A DNA stretch of 64,000 bases from Trypanosoma brucei (taxonomy: Eukaryota). The stretch lies in assembly GCA_000002445.1 (NCBI GenBank), contig CP000069.1:288001-352000 (forward strand), given 5' to 3'. The position numbers and the translations under genes were made by a program. Positions 9,058 through 61,542 of this stretch are shown here, piece by piece (positions within the stretch are counted from its first letter, which is position 1; each line of letters starts with the position of its first letter). Under the pieces are notes generated by a model. It did no database searches, had not been told where the DNA came from, and saw only the letters and a program-made list of their open reading frames with translations.

Positions 9058-9087
9058 CATGCATACATGTATTGCTGTGCACTCATC

Positions 9088-10764: not shown

Positions 10765-11468
10765 TTCGCGTTGCCGTATGCGGGTGCGCTTTTCCTTGGT
10801 GTCAGAAACCTCTTCCTTTTCCTCTTGTCATCATGGTCAATAAAAGCGGTAGGACATATCATGAAAGAGGGAGTGGGTTGACAGGAGAATGGTTTAAGTT
10901 GTTATCAGGCAACAACTTACAGGGGCGCTCTGTGGGTGGAGTCAGAGATGACATCCACGAGGGAAAGGCAAGTGCATTGCGGGGCCCTAACCGGTTAGTG
11001 CGGGTCGTGAAGTTTTTGCATTGTTCCCCGTTTATTTTTTTTTCCCCCTTTGTTCGATGAACGTGTCCATCACTGTTTCACGAGAAAAGAAAGAAAAATA
11101 TAAGAATTTGCACGGGGTTGCACTTCCACTCTCCAAAAAAAAAACCGACGAGCCAGAATATGATCACAAACCCCGTTCCACAGGTGTATGCAGGCACATA
11201 CACATACACACGCAAAAGAAAAAGCAGCGACACGCTGAAGTACAGCATGTATGAAAGTAGCCCATATCGAATTGGCAAGCGGATGGGGGTGGGGGAGGAG
11301 AGAGCAACGAAACGGGACGGCTGAAATATGTGCAGCAAGAGAAAAAAAAGAACCAAAGTATGCATGGGACGGTAATGCGAGCACGCATTCTCAACATACC
11401 CTTTTGGACACTTTTCCCGTTTCCAAACCTGTCATGCTGTTCTTCCTCAATCCTTTCACCTTCCCCCC

Positions 11469-19198: not shown

Positions 19199-19413
19199 GA
19201 CAGGACCAGTATCTATAACAAGAACAAAGCAAGCAACGAGCCTCTGCGCGCCTTCCTTTCCTTTAACAAGGGGAAAGGATCAGAAAGGCAGACAAAAATT
19301 CAGCAGAATTCGAATGAAAACAGAGGGCAGATGTTGGCGGTGTCACAAGCAAACGCGGTAAAGAACTTATCACAACATCTACACAATTAGCGCTCGATAC
19401 ACACGAGAAACAC

Positions 19414-26500: not shown

Positions 26501-27272
26501 TGTTTTTATTATTTTGTTTTGGTTTCGATGTCTGATGTTTTGTGTTCATTTGTTTTGTTCTTCCCATTTGTTGCGTTTCATATATATATATATGTACATG
26601 TAACTGCGTGTGTTTGTGTGTTTGTGATTATTACGCCTGCTTTTGTTGATATTAAAGTTTCTAATTTTTTTCTTTTTAATCCACTAACTTTTTCAATAAT
26701 TCACAGAAGGAAGAAAAACAGAAGCAGAAAATAAAAAGAAAAAAGAAAAGAAAAGAGATGGCGACCTGATAATAGTAATAAAAGTAATGAATGGTGTTAA
26801 AAAGAGAATGAATTAAAAAACGGGGCTAAACAGACACGAATATTTCAGCAAGAAAAATGAAGGAAATATATCATTATATGTGTCCAATATTTTCGCACAT
26901 ATGTTTGTGCTTTCTTTTATATTTTTGTGTTTATATCTGCTGTTTTTGTGTGCCTTTGTTGATTGGAAGATCAAAAGGAAAAAAAAGGAGGAAGGGAGGA
27001 GAATTGGGGTTGTTTGGGGGGGGGCATCTTCAGGAAAGAATATATATATATTAATATTAATATTAATATGTGTGTGTATTTGTGCGTTGGGGTGTTTGTA
27101 TTGGAAGAGGCATGCAAAAGCAGCGCAAGTCCTTCCACACTCATTCGTCCAAATTTTCCTTTTTCTTTTTCTTTTCCTTTTAAATTGTTTGTTCCGGTTT
27201 ATATTTCTTTAAATATATAAAAGTTAGGGGTTTCGTTGTTGTTCTACGCGTTGCCATTTAACGTTGCTACGT
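20539..27272. promoter_or_regulatory. Divergent strand-switch region. It is the presumed bidirectional Pol II transcription start zone for the minus PTU (genes at 3832-20538) and the plus PTU (cyclase array).
   Basis: Gene strand flips from minus (ORFs up to 20538) to plus (from 28005). No credible CDS lies between. Only GC-rich both-strand overlapping ORFs occur here. Polypyrimidine tracts face outward on each strand. Confidence 0.6.
26135..27232 (+). repeat. Right copy of the roughly 1.1-kb inverted duplication. It ends about 40 bp before the first unit of the cyclase array.
   Basis: See the 2237-3315 feature. Boundaries were estimated by eye from where the reverse-complement alignment decays at each end. 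The 3315 end lies immediately beside the (TA)n tract at 3318-3338. Confidence 0.85.
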
Positions 27273-27667
27273 TATTTTCTTACATATCAAATCTTCCAGT
27301 GGTAATTCTTCCCTTGTATGCCAACAGGAGTGCGTAGACCTGCATTATCTTTTAAAAAATACATATTACCTTCTTACGTGTTAACTTTGTGAAACATAAC
27401 CTATGCGACATGATCTTTTCGAATGGTGGATATGCAAATGACTCTGCCCCAATGCCATGTGTCATGCTGTCCAGCACTCAGTGTTGGTGGTGACTTTATG
27501 AGCACCGCTTTAACTATTGTTTGGCAGTGCATTCCTTGTTTTTATGAAGTCAGGTTGATGCGCAGTGGTTGTCGTTATTTCTTTCCCTCATATATATACG
27601 CATGTGCATATTTCAGTATTTAAATACGTATGCTTACCTTGTTTGAGGTTCTATCATATTTGAAAAA

Positions 27668-27712
27668 CATTTTTTTATTTTTGTTTTGTCTACCTCACTT
27701 TGATGCTATATT
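27668..27712 (+). promoter_or_regulatory. Polypyrimidine tract with downstream AG, a candidate trans-splicing acceptor signal for adenylate cyclase copy 1. It is reiterated in every spacer.
   Basis: A T/C-rich run, atttttttatttttgttttgtctacctcactttg, lies about 300 nt upstream of the ORF. This is established trypanosomatid mRNA-processing logic. Confidence 0.5.
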
Positions 27713-28004
27713 TATCCACTACGGCACAGCAGGTGGCACCTTCCTCACACAGTCCCATGGAGGTTTATTTGCGATTGCCCAGGAAGTGGAACAGGAGGGG
27801 GAATATGGGAGTTAGGCGATGCGTCACAATTGCACTTTGCCGCTCTTACGGTGAGTTAACCGAATATTCTTTCGTGTGTGAACCGTAGTATTTCCACCCT
27901 CCCAGGGTTGAGGGTTTAATATTTTGATTATGTCGCGATTGGTGACTTTCTATTTCTGTCCAATACGTCGCCGGGCATGATCTGCATATGTATTAAGCGC
28001 GCCG

Positions 28005-31000
28005 ATGCCACTTTACTGGTTTCTATTTTCCCTCTTCGATATTCTTCTCGAAGACACAAGATTTCACATACGAATAATACCACACATTCCCGAAAATATG
28101 TGCCGGCAGGAAGGTGGCGGCAGAGGATGTGTGTACCCTCATGGAAACTGCAGGCGGAACCTTACCGCAAGGAGCCCTGCAGGGCGTTACAGCATGTACA
28201 AGCACTCACCTGTCATTACTGCTATGTCACTGCTACACTTGTTGCCTTTGCTACTCATGTGGATGCCACCTGTGTGCGCGGATGACAGTGCTGTGACGGT
28301 AAATGTGCTATCCATGATGTACAATTCGGAATATTACGTTGAGAAAGTGAACGCCATCAATGCCGGCTTTGACGCATCACTGAGTGCCCACGGTTGGAAG
28401 ACGGGCTCCGGTGCGACAATATCTGTCATCCGTCCCCCATCGTACAACACCACAGCTGAGGACATATTTCAGCTGGGGGCGAAACAAAGTGAAGGGAAGT
28501 TATTAGTTGTATTTGGGCCCCTGGGTACTGACCCTGTCGTTTGGGTTCGTGATAAACTAAAGGAAAATGATCTTGTTGCCATCGCTCCTATTGCGTACTC
28601 CAGTGAGGTCCGTGGTTGGAACCCTCACCTCTATTCAATAAGTGTCGAACCCAATGCTGAGCTCCTCGCCCTCATTCGATACGCTGTTGTTTATCTGGGT
28701 CTGCCGCGTGTAGGTTTGATGTATGCGAAGGGTAATGGGTTTGACAAGGAGTCATATGAGTTTACCATGCGAATAATGGAAATGATGGGCCGCAAGCCAT
28801 GTGGAGTGTTCGCTGTGGAGAGCAGTGGGGGTCGGGACGTCTTGGAGGGTGAATTGAATACCAAGTGGGGGCAATTTGTTGCTGCACGTCCGCAGGCTGT
28901 ACTGCTATTTTCATCGCTAGAGGAAGAAACCACCGGGTGGTTTGTCAAGAAGATAGCACAGGACAACCGCACTATGGACATGTACCTGCTCGCCCCTTCC
29001 AGTTTTCAACATTTTCTGATCAAAACATGGAGCGATGCGCTGGTGTCACTTAATCGTACGTTCACTCCTGGACAGCTGATCACAACTGGAACAGTGCCAC
29101 TCGCTAGTGACAATCGGTCCTCGATGGTTCGGCACTTCCAGCGTGACATGGACAATTACCTGGATACAAACAGTGACTGGAAGGGCTTTGCGAAACCTGA
29201 ACATTACCTTAAGGACGACAAATTAGGGGAGATGATGGTGTTTGGATGGCTTGCGGGAGAAGTTCTGTTTGAGGCCCTAAACAACGCTCCACAACTGACA
29301 AACCGTACTTCATTCATGGAATCTCTGTACAAGCAGCGTCGCTACGTGATTGATGACTTTGTGGTTGGTGACTTTGGTGGTGAGTGCGATGAGGGCGCTG
29401 CATTACAGGGTGCCATGTGTAATTGCAATCAAGGTGGCAGCATGGCGCATATGAGAGTTGTTGATGACAGCCTCAGTTTGAAGCCTATGAAAAAAGGCTC
29501 TGTGACGTGGAGTGTATCGGAGTGCTCAAGTGCTAATGTGCAGGTGAGCGCACCGTTAATCGGACTGTATGTAGTCCTTACGGATGATAAAGTTGCACAA
29601 CGTGCGAGCATGAGGTGGTCGTTGGGCGCTCGGAGCCTCGAGGAAGCGGATGATGTTGATAAGAGAATATTTTTCCATTCCTTAAAGGTTAATTTAAAAA
29701 ATTTAACGCAATCACTTGAACAAGTAAGGGACACGAAGGCTGTAGCTGCAGTTCTTGGTGTTGTTACCGCTGATATTCTGAGCGTGCCGAATATGACTTT
29801 CATTGGCCCTATTCCATTGTTCCCCCGGTTGAACAAGTTCTGGAGAAACGTGATCCATCTGCAACCGCTACTTGCGCAGCAGCTATATGTGCTTGCTGTA
29901 TACCTCTCCAACACCTCTTCCTTGGGAGTGAAGGCGCTTGTTCGCGGGAGTGAAGCATCTGAGGTTGTAGACACGCTTGATAAGTCATTGGTTACGTTTG
30001 GTGTGTCGCTTGATTCCAGTAAGACACTTGGTGATGGTGACCCGATATCGTCATATCTCTCGGGTAATGGAGATGTGTTTTGTATTGGACTCACTCCCCC
30101 TGACGTTGCTGCGGTTGCGCGGCACCTTCAGACCCACCTCAGGGCACGTGTATTCGTTCCATTCAATGACATTTTGTTGTTTTACCAGGAGTTTGTGGCT
30201 GCATTTAATGCGAGTAAAGAGTCTATTGCCAGCTCAGAGCGGCTCCTATTCGCGACGAGTTTCCCACACTGGGCAAAGAAGAACACGAAATCAGATATGG
30301 TTGCGAGATTTCATCGCCATGTAAATGAATCGCATTGGGATCCACTAACGTTCCTGGGCTTTGCTACCACTCGGCTGCTTCAGGTTGTTATCTCCAATAT
30401 GAAGAAAGTGAATGCAGAGCTGCTGGCAGACCGCATTTACACGGAGTCCAACATCAGAGTGGATGACGTGCGATTTGGACCCTTCAGTGATGCGGAATGT
30501 GTTTCTGGTACGAGTGTTTCGGCAAATGAGTGTGCCTCAAACTTTGGAGCCACAAACATTTCTGTATGGTCGATGGCGCGTGTGCTGAATTCAAGCTTGC
30601 CCAGGACACAGGTTGGGATGACACCGTCTATGGACTATGTTATTCCGCAAGAGGGTCAACTCACACAGTCACAGATAGCTGGAATAATTTCTGGGTGTGT
30701 ATCCGCCTTGTTATTATTTATTGCCCTTGGTGTGTTCCTACACATCTCCCTGCGGAACGCTCGTAACAACAACCGTGCACCCAAGGAGCCAACGGACCCC
30801 GTGACACTAATATTTACTGACATTGAGAGCAGCACTGCGTTGTGGGCTGCACACCCTGATCTGATGCCCGATGCCGTCGCCGCGCATCATCGTATGGTCC
30901 GTTCACTGATTGGGAGGTATAAGTGCTACGAAGTTAAAACTGTTGGGGATTCGTTCATGATAGCGAGTAAGAGTCCTTTCGCTGCCGTCCAACTCGCACA

Positions 31001-31829
31001 GGAATTACAGCTGTGTTTCTTGCATCATGACTGGGGAACAAATGCAGTTGATGATTCTTACCGTGAGTTTGAGGAGCAGCGTGCGGAGGGAGAATGTGAG
31101 TACACACCACCAACCGCGCATATGGATCCTGAAGTGTACAGTCGTTTGTGGAATGGCCTGCGTGTACGTGTTGGAATCCACACCGGGTTGTGCGACATCC
31201 GACACGATGAAGTGACGAAGGGATATGACTACTATGGGCGGACTCCAAACATGGCAGCAAGGACGGAGAGTGTAGCAAATGGTGGTCAGGTGCTGATGAC
31301 GCATGCGGCGTACATGTCGCTGTCAGCTGAGGATCGTAAGCAAATTGATGTCACTGCACTTGGTGCTGTCGCACTTCGCGGTGTGAGTGATCCGGTTAAG
31401 ATGTACCAGCTGAATACCGTGCCTAGTCGTAACTTTGCTGCATTGCGGCTGGACCGCGAATACTTTTTTGATGAGGGCGAGGATGGCACGACAACCTCCA
31501 CAAGCGACCACAGTTCTTCACGTGCGGAGCTGAGTGAATCAGCTCAGATAATTGCAACTGCACTACAGTCGCTGTTAAGCACGTTCAAGACAGCGCATCG
31601 TGAGAAGTTGTTGCTGCCGTATTGTGAGCGTTGGCGTGTGCCTCTTCCCCGTAAAGCTGCATCCGAGTGGGATGACGCCTACTGTGAGGAAGTGGTGCGT
31701 CGCATTGCAGTTAAGGTTGGGCGTGTCGCTGACCATGGCGCTCATAGTGGAAGTGAGTCTTCAAGTACGCAAGGCAGTTCATCAATTATTATCGTCCCCT
31801 TTTACGACATGCACCTTCAGGAATACTAA
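28005..31829 (+). CDS. GRESAG4: Receptor-type adenylate cyclase, GRESAG4/ESAG4 family, copy 1. The true start is probably Met at 28194 or 28224, just before the signal peptide MSLLHLLPLLLMWMPPVCA.
   Basis: The architecture is signal peptide, a large ectodomain, a single TM segment IAGIISGCVSALLLFIALGVFL, and a class III cyclase catalytic domain. The catalytic motifs are LIFTDIESST, KTVGDSFMIAS, RVGIHTG and DYYGRTPNMAAR. Confidence 0.9.
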   Translation: MPLYWFLFSLFDILLEDTRFHIRIIPHIPENMCRQEGGGRGCVYPHGNCRRNLTARSPAGRYSMYKHSPVITAMSLLHLLPLLLMWMPPVCADDSAVTVNVLSMMYNSEYYVEKVNAINAGFDASLSAHGWKTGSGATISVIRPPSYNTTAEDIFQLGAKQSEGKLLVVFGPLGTDPVVWVRDKLKENDLVAIAPIAYSSEVRGWNPHLYSISVEPNAELLALIRYAVVYLGLPRVGLMYAKGNGFDKESYEFTMRIMEMMGRKPCGVFAVESSGGRDVLEGELNTKWGQFVAARPQAVLLFSSLEEETTGWFVKKIAQDNRTMDMYLLAPSSFQHFLIKTWSDALVSLNRTFTPGQLITTGTVPLASDNRSSMVRHFQRDMDNYLDTNSDWKGFAKPEHYLKDDKLGEMMVFGWLAGEVLFEALNNAPQLTNRTSFMESLYKQRRYVIDDFVVGDFGGECDEGAALQGAMCNCNQGGSMAHMRVVDDSLSLKPMKKGSVTWSVSECSSANVQVSAPLIGLYVVLTDDKVAQRASMRWSLGARSLEEADDVDKRIFFHSLKVNLKNLTQSLEQVRDTKAVAAVLGVVTADILSVPNMTFIGPIPLFPRLNKFWRNVIHLQPLLAQQLYVLAVYLSNTSSLGVKALVRGSEASEVVDTLDKSLVTFGVSLDSSKTLGDGDPISSYLSGNGDVFCIGLTPPDVAAVARHLQTHLRARVFVPFNDILLFYQEFVAAFNASKESIASSERLLFATSFPHWAKKNTKSDMVARFHRHVNESHWDPLTFLGFATTRLLQVVISNMKKVNAELLADRIYTESNIRVDDVRFGPFSDAECVSGTSVSANECASNFGATNISVWSMARVLNSSLPRTQVGMTPSMDYVIPQEGQLTQSQIAGIISGCVSALLLFIALGVFLHISLRNARNNNRAPKEPTDPVTLIFTDIESSTALWAAHPDLMPDAVAAHHRMVRSLIGRYKCYEVKTVGDSFMIASKSPFAAVQLAQELQLCFLHHDWGTNAVDDSYREFEEQRAEGECEYTPPTAHMDPEVYSRLWNGLRVRVGIHTGLCDIRHDEVTKGYDYYGRTPNMAARTESVANGGQVLMTHAAYMSLSAEDRKQIDVTALGAVALRGVSDPVKMYQLNTVPSRNFAALRLDREYFFDEGEDGTTTSTSDHSSSRAELSESAQIIATALQSLLSTFKTAHREKLLLPYCERWRVPLPRKAASEWDDAYCEEVVRRIAVKVGRVADHGAHSGSESSSTQGSSSIIIVPFYDMHLQEY

Positions 31830-31911
31830 CCTTGTCATTGATGATATTCGTAGAGTAGCAGTAACATACCGGATTTCTGTTGGGTCGCCATTATTACGAT
31901 GAAGCCGTTGC

Positions 31912-31925
31912 CCATCGGCCGATGG
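31912..31925 (+). promoter_or_regulatory. A 14-bp perfect palindrome CCATCGGCCGATGG about 85 nt downstream of the cyclase stop codon. It recurs at 36671, 41425 and 46179. It is a candidate 3'UTR stem-loop.
   Basis: I read it directly. It is present in the four full spacers and absent after copy 5, where the 3' flank is unique. Confidence 0.45.
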
Positions 31926-32763
31926 CTCGCAATGTAAATGAATGTTATATGCATTAATAGTGCCAGCGTTTAGTGACGTTCATGCTTATTTCAACAATAT
32001 GTTTATTTTTTTTTAACTCTTGTTTTTATTTTCTTACATATCAAATCTTCCAGTGGTAATTCTTCCCTTGTATGCCAACAGGAGTGCGTAGACCTGCATT
32101 ATCTTTTAAAAAATACATATTACCTTCTTACGTGTTAACTTTGTGAAACATAACCTATGCGACATGATCTTTTCGAATGGTGGATATGCAAATGACTCTG
32201 CCCCAATGCCATGTGTCATGCTGTCCAGCACTCAGTGTTGGTGGTGACTTTATGAGCACCGCTTTAACTATTGTTTGGCAGTGCATTCCTTGTTTTTATG
32301 AAGTCAGGTTGATGCGCAGTGGTTGCCGTTATTTCTTTCCTTTGTAAATATACATAAATATATGCATATTTCAGTATTTAAATACGTATGCTTACCTTGT
32401 TTGAGGTTCTATCATATTTGAAAAACATTTTTTTTATTTTTGTTTTGTCTACCTCACTTTAATGCTATATTTATCCACTACGGCACAGCAGGTGGCACCT
32501 TCCTCACACAGTCCCATGGAGGTTTATTTGCGATTGCCCAGGAAGTGGAACAGGAGGGGGAATATGGGAGTTAGGCGATGCGTCACAATTGCACTTTGCC
32601 GCTCTTACGGTGAGTTAACCGAATATTCTTTCGTGTGTGAACCGTAGTATTTCCACCCTCCCAGGGTTGAGGGTTTAATATTTTGATTATGTCGCGATTG
32701 GTGACTTTCTATTTCTGTCCAATACGTCGCCGGGCATGATCTGCATATGTATTAAGCGCGCCG

Positions 32764-35700
32764 ATGCCACTTTACTGGTTTCTATTTTCCCTCTTTGATG
32801 TTCTTCTCGAAGACACAAGATTTCACATACGAATAATACCACACATTCCCGAAAATATGTGCCGGCAGGAAGGTGGCGGCAGAGGATGTGTGTACCCTCA
32901 TGGAAACTGCAGGCGGAACCTTACCGCAAGGAGCCCTGCAAGGCGTTACAGCATGTACAAGCACTCACCTGTCATTACTGCTATGTCACTGCTACACTTG
33001 TTGCCTTTGCTACTCATGTGGATGCCACCTGTGTGCGCGGATGACAGTGCTGTGACGGTAAATGTGCTATCCATGATGTACAATTCGGAATATTACGTTG
33101 AGAAAGTGAACGCCATCAATGCCGGCTTTGACGCATCACTGAGTGCCCACGGTTGGAAGACGGGCTCCGGTGCGACAATATCTGTCATCCGTCCCCCATC
33201 GTACAACACCACAGCTGAGGACATATTTCAGCTGGGGGCGAAACAAAGTGAAGGGAAGTTATTAGTTGTATTTGGGCCCCTGGGTACTGACCCTGTCGTT
33301 TGGGTTCGTGATAAACTAAAGGAAAATGATCTTGTTGCCATCGCTCCTATTGCGTACTCCGGTGAGGTCCGTGGTTGGAACCCTCACCTCTATTCAATAA
33401 GTGTCGAACCCGATGCTGAGCTCCTCGCCCTCATTCGATACGCTGTTGTTTATCTGGGTCTGCCGCGTGTAGGTTTGATGTATGCGAAGGGTAATGGGTT
33501 TGACAAGGAGTCATATGAGTTTACCATGCGAATAATGGAAATGATGGGCCGCAAGCCATGTGGAGTGTTCGCTGTGGAGAGCAGTGGGGGTCGGGACGTC
33601 TTGGAGGGTGAATTGAATACCAAGTGGGGGCAATTTGTTGCTGCACGTCCGCAGGCTGTACTGCTATTTTCGTCAATCGCGGATGATACCACCGGGTGGT
33701 TTGTCAAGAAGATAGCACAGGACAACCGCACTGTGGACATGTACCTGCTCGCCCCTTCCAGTTTTCAACATTTTCTGATCAAAACATGGAGCGATGCGCT
33801 GGTGTCACTTAATCGTACGTTCACTCCTGGACAGCTGATCACAACTGGAACAGTGCCACTCGCTAGTGACAATCGGTCCTCGATGGTTCGGCACTTCCAG
33901 CGTGACATGGACAATTACCTGGATACAAACAGTGACTGGAAGGGCTTTGCGAAACCTGAACATTACCTTAAGGACGACAAATTAGGGGAGATGATGGTGT
34001 TTGGATGGCTTGCGGGAGAAGTTCTGTTTGAGGCCCTAAACAACGCTCCACAACTGACAAACCGTACTTCATTCATGGAATCTCTGTACAAGCAGCGTCG
34101 CTACGTGATTGATGACTTTGTGGTTGGTGACTTTGGTGGTGAGTGCGATGAGGGCGCTGCATTACAGGGTGCCATGTGTAATTGCAATCAAGGTGGCAGC
34201 ATGGCGCATATGAGAGTTGTTGTCAACAGCCTCAGTTTGAAGCCTATGAACAGCGCCTCTGTGACGTGGAGTGTATCGGAGTGCTCAAGTGCTAATGTGC
34301 AGGTGAGCGCACCGTTAATCGGACTGTATGTAGTCCTTACGGATGATAAAGTTGCACAACGTGCGAGCATGAGGTGGTCGTTGGGCGCTCGGAGCCTCGA
34401 GGAAGCGGATGATGTTGATAAGAGAATATTTTTTTACCCACTATACGCAGAGTCAGGAAATGCAGCGAAGACTTTTGAAAAAATTCGTGACACGAAGGCT
34501 GTAGCTGCAGTTCTTGGTGTTGTTACCGCTGATATTCTGAGCGTGCCGAATATGACTTTCATTGGCCCTATTCCATTGTCCCCCCGGTTGAACAAGTTCT
34601 GGAGAAACGTGATCCATCTGCAACCGCTACTTGCGCAGCAGCTATATGTGCTTGCTGTATACCTCTCCAACACCTCTTCCTTGGGAGTGAAGGCGCTGGT
34701 TCGGTGGAGTGAAGCATCTGAGGTTGTAGACACGCTTGATAAGTCATTGGTTACGTTTGGTGTGTCGCTTGATTCCAGTAAGACACTTGGTGATGGTGAC
34801 CCGATATCGTCATATCTCTCGGGTAATGGAGATGTGTTTTGTATTGGACTCACTCCCCCTGACGTTGCTGCGGTTGCGCGGCACCTTCAGACCCACCTCA
34901 GGGCCCGTGTATTCGTTGGGTTCGGTGACATTTTGTTGTTTTACCAGGAGTTTGTGGCTGCATTTAATGCGAGTAAAGAGTCTATTGCCAGCTCAGAGCG
35001 GCTCCTATTCGCGACGAGTTTCCCACACTGGGCAAAGAAGAACACGAAATCAGATATGGTTGCGAGATTTCATCGCCATGTAAATGAATCGCATTGGGAT
35101 CCACTAACGTTCCTGGGCTTTGCTACCACTCGGCTGCTTCAGGTTGTTATCTCCAATATGAGGAAGGTGAATGCAGAGCTGCTGGCAGACCGCATTTACA
35201 CGGAGTCCAACATCAGAGTGGATGACGTGCGATTTGGACCCTTCAGTGATGCGGAATGTGTTTCTGGTACGAGTGTTTCGGCAAATGAGTGTGCCTCAAA
35301 CTTTGGAGCCACAAACATTTCTGTATGGTCGATGGCGCGTGTGCTGAATTCAAGCTTGCCCAGGACACAGGTTGGGATGACACCGTCTATGGACTATGTT
35401 ATTCCGCAAGAGGGTCAACTCACACAGTCACAGATAGCTGGAATAATTTCTGGGTGTGTATCCGCCTTGTTATTATTTATTGCCCTTGGTGTGTTCCTAC
35501 ACATCTCCCTGCGGAACGCTCGTAACAACAACCGTGCAGCCAAGGAACCAACGGACCCCGTGACACTAATATTTACTGACATTGAGAGCAGCACTGCGTT
35601 GTGGGCTGCACACCCTGATCTGATGCCCGATGCCGTCGCCGCGCATCATCGTATGGTCCGTTCACTGATTGGGAGGTATAAGTGCTACGAAGTTAAAACT

Positions 35701-36588
35701 GTTGGGGATTCGTTCATGATAGCGAGTAAGAGTCCTTTCGCTGCCGTCCAACTCGCACAGGAACTACAGCTGTGTTTCTTGCATCATGACTGGGGAACAA
35801 ATGCACTTGATGATTCTTACCGTGAGTTTGAGGAGCAGCGTGCGGAGGGAGAATGTGAGTACACACCACCAACCGCGCATATGGATCCTGAAGTGTACAG
35901 TCGTTTGTGGAATGGCCTGCGTGTACGTGTTGGAATCCACACCGGGTTGTGCGACATCCGACACGATGAAGTGACGAAGGGATATGACTACTATGGGCGG
36001 ACTCCAAACATGGCAGCAAGGACGGAGAGTGTAGCAAATGGTGGTCAGGTGCTGATGACGCATGCGGCGTACCTGTCACTGTCAGCTGAGGAGCGTGAGC
36101 AAATTGATGTCACTGCACTTGGTGCTGTCGCACTTCGCGGTGTGAGTGATCCGGTTAAGATGTACCAGCTGAATACCGTGCCTAGTCGTAACTTTGCTGC
36201 ATTGCGGCTGGACCGCGAATACTTTTTTGATGAGGGCGAGGATGGCACGACAACCTCCACAAGCGACCACAGTTCTTCACGTGCGGAGCTGAGTGAATCA
36301 GCTCAGATAATTGCAACTGCACTACAGTCGCTGTTAAGCACGTTCAAGACAGCGCATCGTGAGAAGTTGTTGCTGCCGTATTGTGAGCGTTGGCGTGTGC
36401 CTCTTCCCCGTAAAGCTGCATCCGAGTGGGATGACGCCTACTGTGAGGAAGTGGTGCGTCGCATTGCGGTTAAGGTTGGGCGCGTCGCTGACCATGGCGC
36501 TCATAGTGGAAGTGAGTCGTCAAGTACGCAAGGCAGTTCATCAATTATTATCGTCCCCTTTTACGACATGCACCTTCAGGAATACTAA
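32764..36588 (+). CDS. GRESAG4: Receptor-type adenylate cyclase, GRESAG4 family, copy 2.
   Basis: It is about 98% identical to copy 1. It carries the alternative ectodomain cassette VVNSLSLKPMNSAS...FFYPLYAESGNAAKTFEKI and the unique substitution VFVGFGDILLFY. Confidence 0.9.
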   Translation: MPLYWFLFSLFDVLLEDTRFHIRIIPHIPENMCRQEGGGRGCVYPHGNCRRNLTARSPARRYSMYKHSPVITAMSLLHLLPLLLMWMPPVCADDSAVTVNVLSMMYNSEYYVEKVNAINAGFDASLSAHGWKTGSGATISVIRPPSYNTTAEDIFQLGAKQSEGKLLVVFGPLGTDPVVWVRDKLKENDLVAIAPIAYSGEVRGWNPHLYSISVEPDAELLALIRYAVVYLGLPRVGLMYAKGNGFDKESYEFTMRIMEMMGRKPCGVFAVESSGGRDVLEGELNTKWGQFVAARPQAVLLFSSIADDTTGWFVKKIAQDNRTVDMYLLAPSSFQHFLIKTWSDALVSLNRTFTPGQLITTGTVPLASDNRSSMVRHFQRDMDNYLDTNSDWKGFAKPEHYLKDDKLGEMMVFGWLAGEVLFEALNNAPQLTNRTSFMESLYKQRRYVIDDFVVGDFGGECDEGAALQGAMCNCNQGGSMAHMRVVVNSLSLKPMNSASVTWSVSECSSANVQVSAPLIGLYVVLTDDKVAQRASMRWSLGARSLEEADDVDKRIFFYPLYAESGNAAKTFEKIRDTKAVAAVLGVVTADILSVPNMTFIGPIPLSPRLNKFWRNVIHLQPLLAQQLYVLAVYLSNTSSLGVKALVRWSEASEVVDTLDKSLVTFGVSLDSSKTLGDGDPISSYLSGNGDVFCIGLTPPDVAAVARHLQTHLRARVFVGFGDILLFYQEFVAAFNASKESIASSERLLFATSFPHWAKKNTKSDMVARFHRHVNESHWDPLTFLGFATTRLLQVVISNMRKVNAELLADRIYTESNIRVDDVRFGPFSDAECVSGTSVSANECASNFGATNISVWSMARVLNSSLPRTQVGMTPSMDYVIPQEGQLTQSQIAGIISGCVSALLLFIALGVFLHISLRNARNNNRAAKEPTDPVTLIFTDIESSTALWAAHPDLMPDAVAAHHRMVRSLIGRYKCYEVKTVGDSFMIASKSPFAAVQLAQELQLCFLHHDWGTNALDDSYREFEEQRAEGECEYTPPTAHMDPEVYSRLWNGLRVRVGIHTGLCDIRHDEVTKGYDYYGRTPNMAARTESVANGGQVLMTHAAYLSLSAEEREQIDVTALGAVALRGVSDPVKMYQLNTVPSRNFAALRLDREYFFDEGEDGTTTSTSDHSSSRAELSESAQIIATALQSLLSTFKTAHREKLLLPYCERWRVPLPRKAASEWDDAYCEEVVRRIAVKVGRVADHGAHSGSESSSTQGSSSIIIVPFYDMHLQEY

Positions 36589-37517
36589 CCTTGTCATTGA
36601 TGATATTCGTAGAGTAGCAGTAACACACCGGATTTCTGTTGGGTCGCCATTATTACGATGAAGCCGTTGCCCATCGGCCGATGGCTCGCAATGTAAATGA
36701 ATGTTATATGCATTAATAGTGCCAGCGTTTAGTGACGTTCATGCTTATTTCAACAATATGTTTATTTTTTTTTAACTCTTGTTTTTATTTTCTTACATAT
36801 CAAATCTTCCAGTGGTAATTCTTCCCTTGTATGCCAACAGGAGTGCGTAGACCTGCATTATCTTTTAAAAAATACATATTACCTTCTTACGTGTTAACTT
36901 TGTGAAACATAACCTATGCGACATGATCTTTTCGAATGGTGGATATGCAAATGACTCTGCCCCAATGCCATGTGTCATGCTGTCCAGCACTCAGTGTTGG
37001 TGGTGACTTTATGAGCACCGCTTTAACTATTGTTTGGCAGTGCATTCCTTGTTTTTATGAAGTCAGGTTGATGCGCAGTGGTTGTCGTTATTTCTTTCCC
37101 TCATATATATACGCATGTGCATATTTCAGTATTTAAATACGTATGCTTACCTTGTTTGAGGTTCTATCATATTTGAAAAACATTTTTTTATTTTTGTTTT
37201 GTCTACCTCACTTTAATGCTATATTTATCCACTACGGCACAGCAGGTGGCACCTTCCTCACACAGTCCCATGGAGGTTTATTTGCGATTGCCCAGGAGGT
37301 GGAACAGGAGGGGGAATATGGGAGTTAGGCGATGCGTCACAATTGCACTTTGCCGCTCTTACGGTGAGTTAACCGAATATTCTTTCGTGTGTGAACCGTA
37401 GTATTTCCACCCTCCCAGGGTTGAGGGTTTAATATTTTGATTATGTCGCGATTGGTGACTTTCTATTTCTGTCCAATACGTCGCCGGGCATGATCTGCAT
37501 ATGTATTAAGCGCGCCG

Positions 37518-40500
37518 ATGCCACTTTACTGGTTTCTATTTTCCCTCTTTGATATTCTTCTCGAAGACACAAGATTTCACATACGAATAATACCACACAT
37601 TACCGAAAATATGTGCCGGCAGGAAGGTGGCGGCAGAGGATGTGTGTACCCTCATGGAAACTGCAGGCGGAACCTTACCGCAAGGAGCCCTGCAAGGCGT
37701 TACAGCATGTACAAGCACTCACCTGTCATTACTGCTATGTCACTGCTACACTTGTTGCCTTTGCTACTCATGTGGATGCCACCTGTGTGCGCGGATGACA
37801 GTGCTGTGACGGTAAATGTGCTATCCATGATGTACAATTCGGAATATTACGTTGAGAAAGTGAACGCCATCAATGCCGGCTTTGACGCATCACTGAGTGC
37901 CCACGGTTGGAAGACGGGCTCCGGTGCGACAATATCTGTCATCCGTCCCCCATCGTACAACACCACAGCTGAGGACATATTTCAGCTGGGGGCGAAACAA
38001 AGTGAAGGGAAGTTATTAGTTGTATTTGGGCCCCTGGGTACTGACCCTGTCGTTTGGGTTCGTGATAAACTAAAGGAAAATGATCTTGTTGCCATCGCTC
38101 CTATTGCGTACTCCGGTGAGGTCCGTGGTTGGAACCCTCACCTCTATTCAATAAGTGTCGAACCCGATGCTGAGCTCCTCGCCCTCATTCGATACGCTGT
38201 TGTTTATCTGGGTCTGCCGCGTGTAGGTTTGATGTATGCGAAGGGTAATGGGTTTGACAAGGAGTCATATGAGTTTACCATGCGAATAATGGAAATGATG
38301 GGCCGCAAGCCATGTGGAGTGTTCGCTGTGGAGAGCAGTGGGGGTCGGGACGTCTTGGAGGGTGAATTGAATACCAAGTGGGGGCAATTTGTTGCTACAC
38401 GTCCGCAGGCTGTACTGCTATTTTCGTCAATCGCGGATGATACCACCGGGTGGTTTGTCAAGAAGATAGCACAGGACAACCGCACTGTGGACATGTACCT
38501 GCTCGCCCCTTCCAGTTTTCAACATTTTCTGATCAAAACATGGAGCGATGCGCTGGTGTCACTTAATCGTACGTTCACTCCTGGACAGCTGATCACAACT
38601 GGAACAGTGCCACTCGCTAGTGACAATCGGTCCTCGATGGTTCGGCACTTCCAGCGTGACATGGACAATTACCTGGATACAAACAGTGACTGGAAGGGCT
38701 TTGCGAAACCTGAACATTACCTTAAGGACGACAAATTAGGGGAGATGATGGTGTTTGGATGGCTTGCGGGAGAAGTTCTGTTTGAGGCCCTAAACAACGC
38801 TCCACAACTGACAAACCGTACTTCATTCATGGAATCTCTGTACAAGCAGCGTCGCTACGTGATTGATGACTTTGTGGTTGGTGACTTTGGTGGTGAGTGC
38901 GATGAGGGCGCTGCATTACAGGGTGCCATGTGTAATTGCAATCAAGGTGGCAGCATGGCGCATATGAGAGTTGTTGTCAACAGCCTCAGTTTGAAGCCTA
39001 TGAACAGCGCCTCTGTGACGTGGAGTGTATCGGAGTGCTCAAGTGCTAATGTGCAGGTGAGCGCACCGTTAATCGGACTGTATGTAGTCCTTACGGATGA
39101 TAAAGTTGCACAACGTGCGAGCATGAGGTGGTCGTTGGGCGCTCGGAGCCTCGAGGAAGCGGATGATGTTGATAAGAGAATATTTTTTTACCCACTATAC
39201 GCAGAGTCAGGAAATGCAGCGAAGACTTTTGAAAAAATTCGTGACACGAAGGCTGTAGCTGCAGTTCTTGGTGTTGTTACCGCTGATATTCTGAGCGTGC
39301 CGAATATGACTTTCATTGGCCCTATTCCACTGTTCCCCCGGTTGAACAAGTTCTGGAGAAACGTGATCCATCTGCAACCGCTACTTGCGCAGCAGCTATA
39401 TGTGCTTGCTGTATACCTCTCCAACACCTCTTCCTTGGGAGTGAAGGCGCTTGTTCGCGGGGGTGAAGCATCTGAGGTTGTAGACACGCTTGATAAGTCA
39501 TTGGTTACGTTTGGTGTGTCGCTTGATTCCAGTAAGACACTTGGTGATGGTGACCCGATATCGTCATATCTCTCGGGTAATGGAGATGTGTTTTGTATTG
39601 GACTCACTCCCCCTGACGTTGCTGCGGTTGCGCGGCACCTTCAGACCCACCTCAGGGCCCGTGTATTCGTTCCATTCAATGACATTTTGTTGTTTTACCA
39701 GGAGTTTGTGGTTGCGTTTAATGCGAGTAAAGAGTCTATTGCCAGCTCAGAGCGGCTCCTATTCGCGACGAGTTTCCCACACTGGGCGGAGAAGAACACG
39801 AAATCAGATATGGTTGCGAGATTTCATCGCCATGTAAATGAATCGCATTGGGATCCACTAACGTTCCTGGGCTTTGCTACCACTCGGCTGCTTCAGGTTG
39901 TTATCTCCAATATGAAGAAAGTGAATGCAGAGCTGCTGGCAGACCGCATTTACACGGAGTCCAACATCAGAGTGGATGACGTGCGATTTGGACCCTTCAG
40001 TGATGCGGAATGTGTTTCTGGTACGAGTGTTTCGGCAAATGAGTGTGCCTCAAACTTTGGAGCCACAAACATTTCTGTATGGTCGATGGCGCGTGTGCTG
40101 AATTCAAGCTTGCCCAGGACACAGGTTGGGATGACACCGTCTATGGACTATGTTATTCCGCAAGAGGGTCAACTCACACAGTCACAGATAGCTGGAATAA
40201 TTTCTGGGTGTGTATCCGCCTTGTTATTATTTATTGCCCTTGGTGTGTTCCTACACATCTCCCTGCGGAACGCTCGTAACAACAACCGTGCACCCAAGGA
40301 GCCAACGGACCCCGTGACACTAATATTTACTGACATTGAGAGCAGCACTGCGTTGTGGGCTGCACACCCTGATCTGATGCCCGATGCCGTCGCCGCGCAT
40401 CATCGTATGGTCCGTTCACTGATTGGGAGGTATAAGTGCTACGAAGTTAAAACTGTTGGGGATTCGTTCATGATAGCGAGTAAGAGTCCTTTCGCTGCCG

Positions 40501-41342
40501 TCCAACTCGCACAGGAATTACAGCTGTGTTTCTTGCATCATGACTGGGGAACAAATGCAGTTGATGATTCTTACCGTGAGTTTGAGGAGCAGCGTGCGGA
40601 GGGAGAATGTGAGTACACACCACCAACCGCGCATATGGATCCTGAAGTGTACAGTCGTTTGTGGAATGGCCTGCGTGTACGTGTTGGAATCCACACCGGG
40701 TTGTGCGACATCCGACACGATGAAGTGACGAAGGGATATGACTACTATGGGCGGACTCCAAACATGGCAGCAAGGACGGAGAGTGTAGCAAATGGTGGTC
40801 AGGTGCTGATGACGCATGCGGCGTACATGTCGCTGTCAGCTGAGGATCGTAAGCAAATTGATGTCACTGCACTTGGTGCTGTCGCACTTCGCGGTGTGAG
40901 TGATCCGGTTAAGATGTACCAGCTGAATACCGTGCCTAGTCGTAACTTTGCTGCATTGCGGCTGGACCGCGAATACTTTTTTGATGAGGGCGAGGATGGC
41001 ACGACAACCTCCACAAGCGACCACAGTTCTTCACGTGCGGAGCTGAGTGAATCAGCTCAGATAATTGCAACTGCACTACAGTCGCTGTTAAGCACGTTCA
41101 AGACAGCGCATCGTGAGAAGTTGTTGCTGCCGTATTGTGAGCGTTGGCGTGTGCCTCTTCCCCGTAAAGCTGCATCCGAGTGGGATGACGCCTACTGTGA
41201 GGAAGTGGTGCGTCGCATTGCGGTTAAGGTTGGGCGCGTCGCTGACCATGGCGCTCATAGTGGAAGTGAGTCTTCAAGTACGCAAGGCAGTTCATCAATT
41301 ATTATCGTCCCCTTTTACGACATGCACCTTCAGGAATACTAA
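37518..41342 (+). CDS. GRESAG4: Receptor-type adenylate cyclase, GRESAG4 family, copy 3.
   Basis: It has the same architecture. It carries the cassette-B ectodomain and has VAFNAS and WAEKNTK. Confidence 0.9.
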   Translation: MPLYWFLFSLFDILLEDTRFHIRIIPHITENMCRQEGGGRGCVYPHGNCRRNLTARSPARRYSMYKHSPVITAMSLLHLLPLLLMWMPPVCADDSAVTVNVLSMMYNSEYYVEKVNAINAGFDASLSAHGWKTGSGATISVIRPPSYNTTAEDIFQLGAKQSEGKLLVVFGPLGTDPVVWVRDKLKENDLVAIAPIAYSGEVRGWNPHLYSISVEPDAELLALIRYAVVYLGLPRVGLMYAKGNGFDKESYEFTMRIMEMMGRKPCGVFAVESSGGRDVLEGELNTKWGQFVATRPQAVLLFSSIADDTTGWFVKKIAQDNRTVDMYLLAPSSFQHFLIKTWSDALVSLNRTFTPGQLITTGTVPLASDNRSSMVRHFQRDMDNYLDTNSDWKGFAKPEHYLKDDKLGEMMVFGWLAGEVLFEALNNAPQLTNRTSFMESLYKQRRYVIDDFVVGDFGGECDEGAALQGAMCNCNQGGSMAHMRVVVNSLSLKPMNSASVTWSVSECSSANVQVSAPLIGLYVVLTDDKVAQRASMRWSLGARSLEEADDVDKRIFFYPLYAESGNAAKTFEKIRDTKAVAAVLGVVTADILSVPNMTFIGPIPLFPRLNKFWRNVIHLQPLLAQQLYVLAVYLSNTSSLGVKALVRGGEASEVVDTLDKSLVTFGVSLDSSKTLGDGDPISSYLSGNGDVFCIGLTPPDVAAVARHLQTHLRARVFVPFNDILLFYQEFVVAFNASKESIASSERLLFATSFPHWAEKNTKSDMVARFHRHVNESHWDPLTFLGFATTRLLQVVISNMKKVNAELLADRIYTESNIRVDDVRFGPFSDAECVSGTSVSANECASNFGATNISVWSMARVLNSSLPRTQVGMTPSMDYVIPQEGQLTQSQIAGIISGCVSALLLFIALGVFLHISLRNARNNNRAPKEPTDPVTLIFTDIESSTALWAAHPDLMPDAVAAHHRMVRSLIGRYKCYEVKTVGDSFMIASKSPFAAVQLAQELQLCFLHHDWGTNAVDDSYREFEEQRAEGECEYTPPTAHMDPEVYSRLWNGLRVRVGIHTGLCDIRHDEVTKGYDYYGRTPNMAARTESVANGGQVLMTHAAYMSLSAEDRKQIDVTALGAVALRGVSDPVKMYQLNTVPSRNFAALRLDREYFFDEGEDGTTTSTSDHSSSRAELSESAQIIATALQSLLSTFKTAHREKLLLPYCERWRVPLPRKAASEWDDAYCEEVVRRIAVKVGRVADHGAHSGSESSSTQGSSSIIIVPFYDMHLQEY

Positions 41343-42271
41343 CCTTGTCATTGATGATATTCGTAGAGTAGCAGTAACACACCGGATTTCTGTTGGGTCG
41401 CCATTATTACGATGAAGCCGTTGCCCATCGGCCGATGGCTCGCAATGTAAATGAATGTTATATGCATTAATAGTGCCAGCGTTTAGTGACGTTCATGCTT
41501 ATTTCAACAATATGTTTATTTTTTTTTAACTCTTGTTTTTATTTTCTTACATATCAAATCTTCCAGTGGTAATTCTTCCCTTGTATGCCAACAGGAGTGC
41601 GTAGACCTGCATTATCTTTTAAAAAATACATATTACCTTCTTACGTGTTAACTTTGTGAAACATAACCTATGCGACATGATCTTTTCGAATGGTGGATAT
41701 GCAAATGACTCTGCCCCAATGCCATGTGTCATGCTGTCCAGCACTCAGTGTTGGTGGTGACTTTATGAGCACCGCTTTAACTATTGTTTGGCAGTGCATT
41801 CCTTGTTTTTATGAAGTCAGGTTGATGCGCAGTGGTTGTCGTTATTTCTTTCCCTCATATATATACGCATGTGCATATTTCAGTATTTAAATACGTATGC
41901 TTACCTTGTTTGAGGTTCTATCATATTTGAAAAACATTTTTTTATTTTTGTTTTGTCTACCTCACTTTAATGCTATATTTATCCACTACGGCACAGCAGG
42001 TGGCACCTTCCTCACACAGTCCCATGGAGGTTTATTTGCGATTGCCCAGGAAGTGGAACAGGAGGGGGAATATGGGAGTTAGGCGATGCGTCACAATTGC
42101 ACTTTGCCGCTCTTACGGTGAGTTAACCGAATATTCTTTCGTGTGTGAACCGTAGTATTTCCACCCTCCCAGGGTTGAGGGTTTAATATTTTGATTATGT
42201 CGCGATTGGTGACTTTCTATTTCTGTCCAATACGTCGCCGGGCATGATCTGCATATGTATTAAGCGCGCCG

Positions 42272-45200
42272 ATGCCACTTTACTGGTTTCTATTTTCCCT
42301 CTTTGATATTCTTCTCGAAGACACAAGATTTCACATACGAATAATACCACACATTACCGAAAATATGTGCCGGCAGGAAGGTGGCGGCAGAGGATGTGTG
42401 TACCCTCATGGAAACTGCAGGCGGAACCTTACCGCAAGGAGCCCTGCAAGGCGTTACAGCATGTACAAGCACTCACCTGTCATTACTGCTATGTCACTGC
42501 TACACTTGTTGCCTTTGCTACTCATGTGGATGCCACCTGTGTGCGCGGATGACAGTGCTGTGACGGTAAATGTGCTATCCATGATGTACAATTCGGAATA
42601 TTACGTTGAGAAAGTGAACGCCATCAATGCCGGCTTTGACGCATCACTGAGTGCCCACGGTTGGAAGACGGGCTCCGGTGCGACAATATCTGTCATCCGT
42701 CCCCCATCGTACAACACCACAGCTGAGGACATATTTCAGCTGGGGGCGAAACAAAGTGAAGGGAAGTTATTAGTTGTATTTGGGCCCCTGGGTACTGACC
42801 CTGTCGTTTGGGTTCGTGATAAACTAAAGGAAAATGATCTTGTTGCCATCGCTCCTATTGCGTACTCCGGTGAGGTCCGTGGTTGGAACCCTCACCTCTA
42901 TTCAATAAGTGTCGAACCCGATGCTGAGCTCCTCGCCCTCATTCGATACGCTGTTGTTTATCTGGGTCTGCCGCGTGTAGGTTTGATGTATGCGAAGGGT
43001 AATGGGTTTGACAAGGAGTCATATGAGTTTACCATGCGAATAATGGAAATGATGGGCCGCAAGCCATGTGGAGTGTTCGCTGTGGAGAGCAGTGGGGGTC
43101 GGGACGTCTTGGAGGGTGAATTGAATACCAAGTGGGGGCAATTTGTTGCTACACGTCCGCAGGCTGTACTGCTATTTTCGTCAATCGCGGATGATACCAC
43201 CGGGTGGTTTGTCAAGAAGATAGCACAGGACAACCGCACTGTGGACATGTACCTGCTCGCCCCTTCCAGTTTTCAACATTTTCTGATCAAAACATGGAGC
43301 GATGCGCTGGTGTCACTTAATCGTACGTTCACTCCTGGACAGCTGATCACAACTGGAACAGTGCCACTCGCTAGTGACAATCGGTCCTCGATGGTTCGGC
43401 ACTTCCAGCGTGACATGGACAATTACCTGGATACAAACAGTGACTGGAAGGGCTTTGCGAAACCTGAACATTACCTTAAGGACGACAAATTAGGGGAGAT
43501 GATGGTGTTTGGATGGCTTGCGGGAGAAGTTCTGTTTGGGGCCCTAAACAACGCTCCACAACTGACAAACCGTACTTCATTCATGGAATCTCTGTACAAG
43601 CAGCGTCGCTACGTGATTGATGACTTTGTGGTTGGTGACTTTGGTGGTGAGTGCGATGAGGGCGCTGCATTACAGGGTGCCATGTGTAATTGCAATCAAG
43701 GTGGCAGCATGGCGCATATGAGAGTTGTTGATGACAGCCTCAGTTTGAAGCCTATGAAGAAAGGCTCTGTGACGTGGAGTGTATCGGAGTGCTCAAGTGC
43801 TAATGTGCGGGTGAGCGCACCGTTAATCGGACTGTATGTAGTCCTTACGGATGATAAAGTTGCACAACGTGCGAGCATGAGGTGGTCGTTGGGCGCTCGG
43901 AGCCTCGAGGAAGCGGATGATGTTGATAAGAGAATATTTTTCCATTCCTTAAAGGTTAATTTGAAAAATTTAACGCAATCACTTGAACAAGTAAGGGACA
44001 CGAAGGCTGTAGCTGCAGTTCTTGGTGTTGTTACCGCTGATATTCTGAGCGTGCCGAATATGACTTTCATTGGCCCTATTCCACTGTTCCCCCGGTTGAA
44101 CAAGTTCTGGAGAAACGTGATCCATCTGCAACCGCTACTTGCGCAGCAGCTATATGTGCTTGCTGTATACCTCTCCAACACCTCTTCCATGGGAGTGAAG
44201 GCGCTTGTTCGCGGGGGTGAAGCATCTGAGGTTGTAGACACGCTTGATAAGTCATTGGTTACGTTTGGTGTGTCGCTTGATTCCAGTAAGACACTTGGTG
44301 ATGATGACCCAATGTCGTCATATCTCTCGGGTAATGGAGATGTGTTTTGTATTGGACTCACTCCCCCTGACGTTGCTGCGGTTGCGCGGCACCTTCAGAC
44401 CCACCGCAGGGCCCGTGTATTCGTTCCATTCAATGACATTTTGTTGTTTTACCAGGAGTTTGTGGCTGCATTTAATGCGAGTAAAGAGTCTATTGCCAGC
44501 TCAGAGCGGCTCCTATTCGCGACGAGTTTCCCACACTGGGCGGAGAAGAACACGAAATCAGATATGGTTGCGAGATTTCATCGCCATGTAAATGAATCGC
44601 ATTGGGATCCACTAACGTTCCTGGGCTTTGCTACCACTCGGTTGCTTCAGGTTGTTATCTCCAATATGAGGAAGGTGAATGCAGAGCTGCTGGCAGACCG
44701 CATTTACACGGAGTCCAACATCAGAGTGGATGACGTGCGATTTGGACCCTTCAGTGATGCGGAATGTGTTTCTGGTACGAGTGTTTCGGCAAATGAGTGT
44801 GCCTCAAACTTTGGAGCCACAAACATTTCTGTATGGTCGATGGCGCGTGTGCTGAATTCAAGCTTGCCCAGAACACAGGTTGGGATGACACCGTCTATGG
44901 ACTATGTTATTCCGCAAGAGGGTCAACTAACACAGTCACAGATAGCTGGAATAATTTCTGGGTGTGTATCCGCCTTGTTATTATTTATTGCCCTTGGTGT
45001 GTTCCTACACATCTCCCTGCGGAACGCTCGTAACAACAACCGTGCACCCAAGGAACCAACGGACCCCGTGACACTAATATTTACTGACATTGAGAGCAGC
45101 ACTGCGTTGTGGGCTGCACACCCTGATCTGATGCCCGATGCCGTCGCCGCGCATCATCGTATGGTCCGTTCACTGATTGGGAGGTATAAGTGCTACGAAG

Positions 45201-46096: not shown

Positions 46097-47030
46097 CCTT
46101 GTCATTGATGATATTCGTAGAGTAGCAGTAACACACCGGATTTCTGTTGGGTCGCCATTATTACGATGAAGCCGTTGCCCATCGGCCGATGGCTCGCAAT
46201 GTAAATGAATGTTATATGCATTAATAGTGCCAGCGTTTAGTGACGTTCATGCTTATTTCAACAATATGTTTATTTTTTTTTAACTCTTGTTTTTATTTTC
46301 TTACATATCAAATCTTCCAGTGGTAATTCTTCCCTTGTATGCCAACAGGAGTGCGTAGACCTGCATTATCTTTTAAAAAATACATATTACCTTCTTACGT
46401 GTTAACTTTGTGAAACATAACCTATGCGACATGATCTTTTCGAATGATGGATATGCAAATGACTCTGCCCCAATGCCATGTGTCATGCTGTCCAGCACTC
46501 AGTGTTGGTGGTGACTTTATGAGCACCGCTTTAACTATTGTTTGGCAGTGCATTCCTTGTTTTTATGAAGTCAGGTTGATGCGCAGTGGTTGCCGTTATT
46601 TCTTTCCTTTGTAAATATACATAAATATATGCATATTTCAGTATTTAAATACGTATGCTTACCTTGTTTGAGGTTCTATCATATTTGAAAAACATTTTTT
46701 TTATTTTTGTTTTGTCTACCTCACTTTAATGCTATATTTATCCACTACGGCACAGCAGGTGGCACCTTCCTCACACAGTCCCATGGAGGTTTATTTGCGA
46801 TTGCCCAGGAGGTGGAACAGGAGGGGGAATATGGGAGTTAGGCGATGCGTCACAATTGCACTTTGCCGCTCTTACGGTGAGTTAACCGAATATTCTTTCG
46901 TGTGTGAACCGTAGTATTTCCACCCTCCCAGGGTTGAGGGTTTAATATTTTGATTATGTCGCGATTGGTGACTTTCTATTTCTGTCCAATACGTCGCCGG
47001 GCATGATCTGCATATGTATTAAGCGCGCCG

Positions 47031-61499: not shown

Positions 61500-61542
<43 letters not shown>

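Follow-up and report, generated by a model that had tools for sequence, protein, structure and literature searches.

The stretch of DNA that we analysed (the window, 64 kb of chromosome 6 of Trypanosoma brucei brucei TREU927) contains five head-to-tail open reading frames (ORFs) of 1274-1277 codons on the forward strand. Read from the second in-frame methionine (codon 32), all five translations are exactly identical to the T. b. brucei TREU927 proteins XP_845199-XP_845203, so the window represents the reference sequence for a well-known family of genes; the five form the array of GRESAG4.1-type receptor adenylate cyclases on chromosome 6 that is named by Tb927.6.760. The left limit of the array was taken as the first sequence that the upstream flank of copy 1 shares with the inter-copy spacers, and the right limit as the point in copy 5 where the homology with copies 1-4 stops. 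The array and its genes are as follows:

27272..50834, forward strand, tandem array of about 4.95 repeat units with a period of 4754-4759 nt
28005..31829, forward strand, copy 1 ORF, XP_845199, receptor-type adenylate cyclase, cassettes A-A-A
32764..36588, forward strand, copy 2 ORF, XP_845200, cassettes B-B-B
37518..41342, forward strand, copy 3 ORF, XP_845201, cassettes B-B-B
42272..46096, forward strand, copy 4 ORF, XP_845202, cassettes A-A-A
47031..50864, forward strand, copy 5 ORF, XP_845203, cassettes A-B-B (chimera)

The annotated start of copy 1 is at 28098, and the identity with XP_845199 runs from that position. The 3' end of copy 5 is unrelated to the other copies from about 50835, 20 nt or so before the stop codon, which is also where the array ends, so this copy has a C-terminus of its own; an exact-protein look-up with copy 5 found no other assembly. 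Tandem Repeats Finder did not list the array, the period of which exceeds the 500-nt limit of that program, and tRNA and Rfam scans of the 64-kb window gave no matches.

The domain architecture is that of the ESAG4/GRESAG4 receptor-type adenylate cyclases, namely, two Venus-flytrap-like domains and a cytoplasmic class III cyclase domain, in addition to the identity with annotated members of the family. The Pfam matches consist of two periplasmic-binding-protein-like regions, PF25495 (aa 218-362, E = 1.6e-52) and PF25493 (aa 515-878, E = 2e-127), followed by the class III cyclase domain PF00211 (Guanylate_cyc, aa 927-1137, E = 1e-42), and the catalytic domain matches PDB 1FX2, the catalytic domain of GRESAG4.1, with E = 1e-157. 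Between the ectodomain and the catalytic domain, a single transmembrane helix is predicted by hydropathy: there is one hydrophobic span (aa 889-913), and the 19-residue windows that start at aa 889-901 are the sole strongly hydrophobic ones.

Mosaic structure of the array and exchange among its copies

A reading of this locus from the sequence alone had described two alternative cassettes in the ectodomain of the cyclases. The five intervals that it gave indeed translate, in the third frame of their coordinates, to the peptides quoted for them, and all the peptides and spacer strings are present in the copies for which they were claimed. Cassette A (VDDSLSLKPMKKGS ... FFHSLKVNLKNLTQSLEQV) is carried by copies 1 and 4 and cassette B (VVNSLSLKPMNSAS ... 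FFYPLYAESGNAAKTFEKI) by copies 2 and 3. Copy 5, which had been described as a chimera with an A-type left half and a B-type right half, does switch from A to B (VDDSLSLKPMNSAS ... FFYPLYAESGNAAKTFEKI), but the junction lies inside the left half rather than between the halves, namely, between ORF codons 488 and 496, where VDD (A) is followed by NSAS (B) and then by the B-type right block. At the DNA level, the cassette resolves into three separate patches (CDS nt 1460-1462, 1488-1493 and 1671-1725), and the spacers, as had also been proposed, are mosaic, with a patch of their own:

27572..27604, forward strand, two-haplotype patch in the 5' spacer with small indels, one form before copies 1, 3 and 4 (at 27589, 37102 and 41856) and the other before copies 2 and 5 (at 32341 and 46608)
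29464..29466, forward strand, left sub-cassette 1, DD (A) or VN (B), CDS nt 1460-1462, copies 1, 4 and 5 versus 2 and 3; equivalents in copies 2-5 at 34223-34225, 38977-38979, 43731-43733 and 48490-48492
29492..29497, forward strand, left sub-cassette 2, KKG (A) or NSA (B), CDS nt 1488-1493, copies 1 and 4 versus 2, 3 and 5; equivalents in copies 2-5 at 34251-34256, 39005-39010, 43759-43764 and 48518-48523
29675..29729, forward strand, right cassette, a 55-nt in-frame block, CDS nt 1671-1725, copies 1 and 4 versus 2, 3 and 5; equivalents in copies 2-5 at 34434-34488, 39188-39242, 43942-43996 and 48701-48755

The two forms of the right cassette differ at about half of their bases, and the flanks are 100% identical; the 60-nt bin that includes most of this block harbors 23 variable sites, whereas no more than 11 were obtained in any of 5000 random placements. 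Several smaller variable motifs pointed out in the sequence-only reading segregate among the copies in other ways: FPR/SPR separates copies 1, 3 and 4 from copies 2 and 5, RGS/RWS/RGG distinguishes copy 1, copy 2 and copies 3-5, GDGDPIS/GDDDPMS splits copies 1-3 from copies 4 and 5, and at VPFND/VGFGD copy 2 alone differs. The peptide SSLEEETTGW, as claimed, is confined to copy 1, where it corresponds to a private block at 28913-28928, and copy 2 has private patches at CDS nt 1935-1942, 2155-2162 and 3310-3334.

The differences among the copies are not tree-like. Over the 4.4 kb that the five copies have in common, 64 parsimony-informative biallelic sites fall into 8 of the 10 possible splits, 2 being the number that a five-taxon tree permits, and 19 of the 28 pairs of splits fail the four-gamete test. 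The site patterns form 22 runs along the repeat unit, with a Hudson-Kaplan Rm of 12, and the sites that are compatible with one another are spatially clustered; a PHI-like statistic was below all 5000 permutations (p < 1/5000). When the informative sites were restricted to synonymous ones, in codons for an invariant amino acid, 6 splits remained, with Rm = 4, so parallel selection on the protein sequence cannot explain the incompatibility. Copy 5 exemplifies the pattern: its nearest neighbour at most informative sites is copy 4, and it also carries patches common to copies 2 and 3 (the B blocks), patches found otherwise in copy 2 alone and patches of copy 1. The conflict among splits, the Rm values, the PHI-like test, the synonymous sites and the recombined cassettes in the T. 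b. gambiense strain DAL972 (see below) all support the proposal that segments are exchanged among the tandem paralogues by gene conversion or recombination.

Recombination in this array has been reported previously. Table 2 of Jackson et al. (2010, PLoS Negl Trop Dis 4:e658, PMC2854126) lists it as array 42 (GRESAG4, Tb927.6.760, chromosome 6), with 5 copies in T. b. brucei (Tbb) and 4 in T. b. gambiense (Tbg), a PHI p value below 0.001, 2 LRT breakpoints and 11 GARD breakpoints, and the same study found that subspecies-specific mosaics are common in tandem arrays. The earlier descriptions of the array (Jackson 2007; Jackson et al. 2010) give summary statistics only, without an account of the single cassettes, of copy 5 as a chimera, of the glycosylation sequon that B lacks or of where the B block came from. 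The mosaic pattern is real, and there is good support for segmental exchange among tandem paralogues as its mechanism, which is an ordinary one.

The array as a whole is very probably best explained as a GRESAG4.1-type array subject to short-tract exchange, in which old, divergent ectodomain patches have moved as units. Repeated short-tract, homology-driven exchange between misaligned copies, whether by gene conversion or by unequal crossing-over of sister chromatids or homologues, homogenises the units and at the same time reshuffles the existing variants, so that each copy is a patchwork of the others. The exchange spans the entire 4.75-kb unit, including the spacer, the ectodomain, the catalytic domain and the tail. 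Three short, old and very divergent patches in the ectodomain-coding part move as units and assort independently, which gives rise to the A/B cassette picture and to the chimeric copy 5. Whether the exchange proceeds by conversion or crossover, in which direction sequence was transferred and where the B block originated are matters of inference.

A similar phenomenon in T. brucei is the formation of mosaic VSG genes, in which short in-frame patches are likewise copied between diverged members, with sharp junctions in identical regions. However, VSG mosaics are formed somatically in the course of infection, by transfer from silent donors to an expression site, and drive antigenic variation, whereas the cyclase array is a chromosome-internal germline locus that is not known to undergo somatic switching.

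Divergence of the ectodomain and the question of selection

T. brucei possesses dozens of surface adenylate cyclases, and no ligand for them was found named in the literature that we consulted. Some of these cyclases act to dampen the innate immunity of the host or to control behaviour in the tsetse fly (PMC6027212), so the diversification of their ectodomains is of interest. The sequence-only reading contrasted an almost invariant catalytic domain with a variable ectodomain, where the patchwork was thought to be concentrated, and connected this with diversification of sensor specificity. This is also, in essence, the reading of Emes and Yang (2008, PLoS One 3:e2295, PMC2386149), who used Tb927.6.760 to establish that there is homology with leucine-binding protein and suggested that ligand binding has diversified adaptively, that is, an adaptive, leucine-binding-protein-like ectodomain joined to a constrained catalytic domain. 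Both recombination and ectodomain selection, then, have already been published for this array (Jackson et al. 2010; Emes and Yang 2008).

The contrast between the domains turns out to be overstated. Although 47 of the 849 ectodomain residues are variable, the count without the three blocks is 24 of 809 (3.0%), compared to 6 of 211 (2.8%) in the catalytic domain; the C-terminal tail shows no variation (0 of 130). What stands of the earlier claim is that all three dense blocks are found exclusively in the ectodomain; the patchwork as such is not restricted to it, given that pattern switches occur at 5.8 per kb in the ectodomain-coding part versus 4.4 per kb in the transmembrane and cytoplasmic part, and that the spacers also are mosaic.

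The comparison of substitution rates, which we ran with Nei-Gojobori counts, yielded pN/pS of 0.56 for the ectodomain (0.49 without the blocks) and 0.16 for the transmembrane and cytoplasmic part. The right block gave 0.52, with pS near saturation, and the sole region above 1 is the left block (1.18), which comprises few sites. Averaged over all pairs, pS in the right block is 0.47, which implies a value of about 0.8 between A and B; outside the right block, synonymous divergence is alike in both halves of the gene, at about 0.014-0.027. For the entire array, which is number 42 in that study as well, Jackson (2007, BMC Evol Biol 7:54, PMC1855330) reported dS of 0.0262 and dN of 0.0135, in line with the pS and pN measured here; the supplements to that paper contain no entry for the array under Tb42 or the gene identifiers. 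The ratio is thus higher in the ectodomain than in the cytoplasmic part, yet there is no excess of amino acid change: pN/pS is below 1 in all large regions and, outside the blocks, the ectodomain is no more variable than the catalytic domain. Diversification of sensor specificity is not supported by these counts, in which no positive selection is detected; they fit an ectodomain that is under weaker constraint and, apparently, contains an imported divergent patch.

An alternative to exchange is that diversifying selection on the ligand-contacting residues of the ectodomain has produced parallel substitutions that mimic recombination, each copy having acquired its own sensor specificity. It was with PAML site models that Emes and Yang (2008, PMC2386149), in the five-gene cluster CPG 19651441 (receptor-type adenylate cyclase), assigned 8.5% of sites to a class with omega = 7.2 and listed as selected S169, W174, N186, A263, K466, Q482, K530, N532, K534, L536, F575, L609, S618, G647, I650, P688, N690, K727, K769 and M1238-L1240. 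With an offset of +31, these sites map one-to-one on variable residues of copy 1; the cluster is this very set of five genes. All three dense blocks are extracellular, and the higher pN/pS of the ectodomain, along with the value for the small left block, points in the same direction. In an AlphaFold2 model of the copy 1 ectodomain (mean pLDDT 79.6, pTM 0.79), which matches LivK/LivJ-type binding proteins and the ligand-binding domain of mGluR with E values of about 1e-14, and that of taste receptors too, the right block is predicted to occupy residues 524-546 (annotated numbering), where the second Venus-flytrap domain begins, and to cover the end of strand beta1, the loop after it and the larger part of helix alpha1; the left patches fall in a lower-confidence linker. 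In binding proteins of type I, the loop that comes after beta1 can form part of the ligand cleft.

Selection of this kind as the source of the mosaic nevertheless appears improbable. Parallel selection does not produce identical multi-nucleotide haplotypes that include many synonymous differences and are common to copies and to subspecies, nor does it account for phylogenetic incompatibility at synonymous sites alone, and pattern switches are about equally frequent in the cytoplasmic part. The analysis of Emes and Yang assumes a single tree, whereas the block sites that it flagged lie in a segment that appears to have been transplanted, with the near-saturated synonymous sites and the pN/pS of 0.52 noted above. 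The location of the right-block sites within an apparently imported, synonymously saturated patch is one of the points that the present analysis adds. Under recombination, false positives are a known problem of site models that presuppose a single tree and a single synonymous rate. The published calls of positive selection in the right block are therefore probably confounded by recombination. Exchange among the copies, with a few old patches carried along, remains the preferred reading.

The T. b. gambiense array and the B-type right block

The array of T. b. gambiense DAL972 consists of four copies, with the cassettes B-A-A, A-A-A, B-A-B and A-A-A, and a separately deposited GRESAG4.1 protein is A-A-A; between them, TREU927 and DAL972 display 5 of the 8 possible cassette combinations. 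Given that both cassettes are present in DAL972 and that A is found also in the GRESAG4.1 protein, both haplotypes are real and predate the split of the subspecies. The DAL972 locus is interrupted by N gaps and scrambled: 'Tbg4' follows the flank that lies before copy 1 in TREU927, and the end of 'Tbg1' is of the copy 5 type. The cassette contents are thus trustworthy and the copy order is not, and positional orthology between the TREU927 and DAL972 copies was abandoned for the same reason.

That the mosaic could stem from collapsed or mis-joined repeats, or from two homologous chromosomes mixed into one consensus, is very hard to credit, even though 4.75-kb units that are about 97-99% identical are difficult for a Sanger-era assembly, read vouchers are given for chromosomes 9-11 only (Jackson 2007, PMC1855330) and the DAL972 version of the locus is visibly mis-assembled, because both cassette types recur in that independent assembly of another subspecies, type A recurs in the separately deposited protein, copies 5 and 1 are anchored by a unique 3' end and a unique 5' flank, respectively, and the three sub-cassettes all fall in a span of 270 nt, so that each combination, including A-B-B of copy 5, should fit one Sanger read. 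The order of the copies and their long-range phasing depend on a single assembly, made in the Sanger era from a diploid strain.

Across CDS nt 1-2720, there are 14 fixed differences between all TREU927 and all DAL972 copies and 40 shared polymorphisms, 37 of which are located within nt 1460-1817. Pairwise differences number 7-13 within Tbg, 8-23 within Tbb and 13-28 between the two, so that distances within a genome tend to be lower than those between genomes, with a partial overlap of the ranges. This is a classical pattern of concerted evolution, with a few divergent patches retained.

The most unusual of these patches is the B form of the right block. In register, the A and B forms agree at 31 of 59 bases. 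The B peptide is identical to the A peptide at 5 of 19 positions and to any of 25 representatives of the family at 7 of 19 at most, against 96.5% identity between copies 1 and 2 over the 200 residues that flank the block. The A form is identical to paralogues at 13 of 19 positions and so looks ancestral. The search for donors that had been suggested revealed none among members of the family, as no representative among the 25 clusters exceeded 7 of 19 identities to B; a local donor was sought as well, by a fuzzy search of the window (both strands, at most 12 mismatches in 59) and by blastn-short and tblastn against the window and the DAL972 locus, and these searches recovered the cassettes only. 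An origin of the B block by frameshift was rejected, the shifted registers from -6 to +6 giving 12-21 identities in 59 compared to 31 in register.

The B block appears to be a transplant, as opposed to a product of accumulated point mutation, and is probably either an import from a divergent, unsampled member of the family or an old persisting allele. A more specific scenario, which we regard as tentative and somewhat unlikely, is that the 55-nt block did not arise by exchange inside the array but was ectopically imported, by conversion, from a very divergent, unsampled cyclase gene or pseudogene and has been kept beside A since before the split of brucei and gambiense because it changes the surface of the receptor. 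Ectopic conversion was found to be very rare by Jackson (2007, PMC1855330). If such an import did take place, the published signal of positive selection at the right-block sites would be its by-product.

A further addition of this analysis is that the A/B polymorphism, common to the two subspecies, toggles one conserved glycosylation sequon; these additions are minor and leave the general picture unchanged. The ectodomain contains 13 N-glycosylation sequons, of which the single variable one is N566-L-T in the A form, replaced by N-A-A in B. At this site, a sequon is retained by the closest paralogues, as NVT, and by a T. congolense relative, as NAT. Asn566 of the ORF corresponds to Asn535 in the annotated numbering.

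Strand switches and flanks of the GRESAG4 array

The five tandem adenylate cyclase genes lie between a divergent strand switch on one side (window 20540-27270) and a convergent one (window 50865-62720) on the other. The minus-strand genes upstream of the array form a group at window 5742-20538 and, after their end at 20538, 6.7 kb follow without long ORFs. The PUF-domain gene is convergent to the array.

Genes flanking the array (window coordinates, strand)
5742-8765, minus: alanyl-tRNA synthetase
11469-13256, minus: ORF of 595 codons, no Pfam match
15443-19198, minus: DEAH/HA2 helicase with R3H domain
19414-20538, minus: metallophosphoesterase
62722-63855, minus: PUF-domain gene

Downstream of the array, the 56-62 kb segment of the window is strongly AT-rich (GC 0.28-0.30), and its repeats are short simple ones only. 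Scans of the whole window found no tRNA and no Rfam families.

Reading frames within the copies

The mechanical ORF of copy 1 includes 31 extra codons (window 28005-28097) 5' of the annotated start codon at 28098, and the same putative 31-codon N-terminal extension is present at the equivalent positions of the other copies. This putative extension, which begins MPLYWFLFSLFD, is conserved, with two residues that vary. On the opposite strand, an antisense ORF overlies the cassette.

Antisense ORFs (window coordinates, strand)
29429-30094 and 43696-44361, minus: A-type copies, 221 codons
34434-34853, 39188-39607 and 48701-49120, minus: B-type copies, 139 codons

The B-type right block coincides with the boundary of this antisense ORF, which is at most a hypothetical gene.

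The array in other assemblies

In the T. b. gambiense DAL972 assembly, the array is mis-assembled. The locus with the four-copy version (L001; FN554969.1 119494-142277) contains N gaps at 6076, 13403 and 18668. Its first gene ends in the C-terminus typical of copy 5, and its fourth gene is preceded by the unique flank that, in TREU927, is found before copy 1 (window 25694-26381 and 27158-28004). The third gene, past ~12726, runs into sequence without relation to the window and is thereby cut short at 927 aa.

Outside the window, two proteins annotated as Schistosoma mansoni (P0004 and P0033) are trypanosome GRESAG4 sequences. Smp_112590 (1254 aa) shows 76% identity to copy 1, and Smp_186530 (49 aa) is a member of the 90% cluster that holds the array; most likely, both represent T. 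brucei contamination in an S. mansoni assembly.
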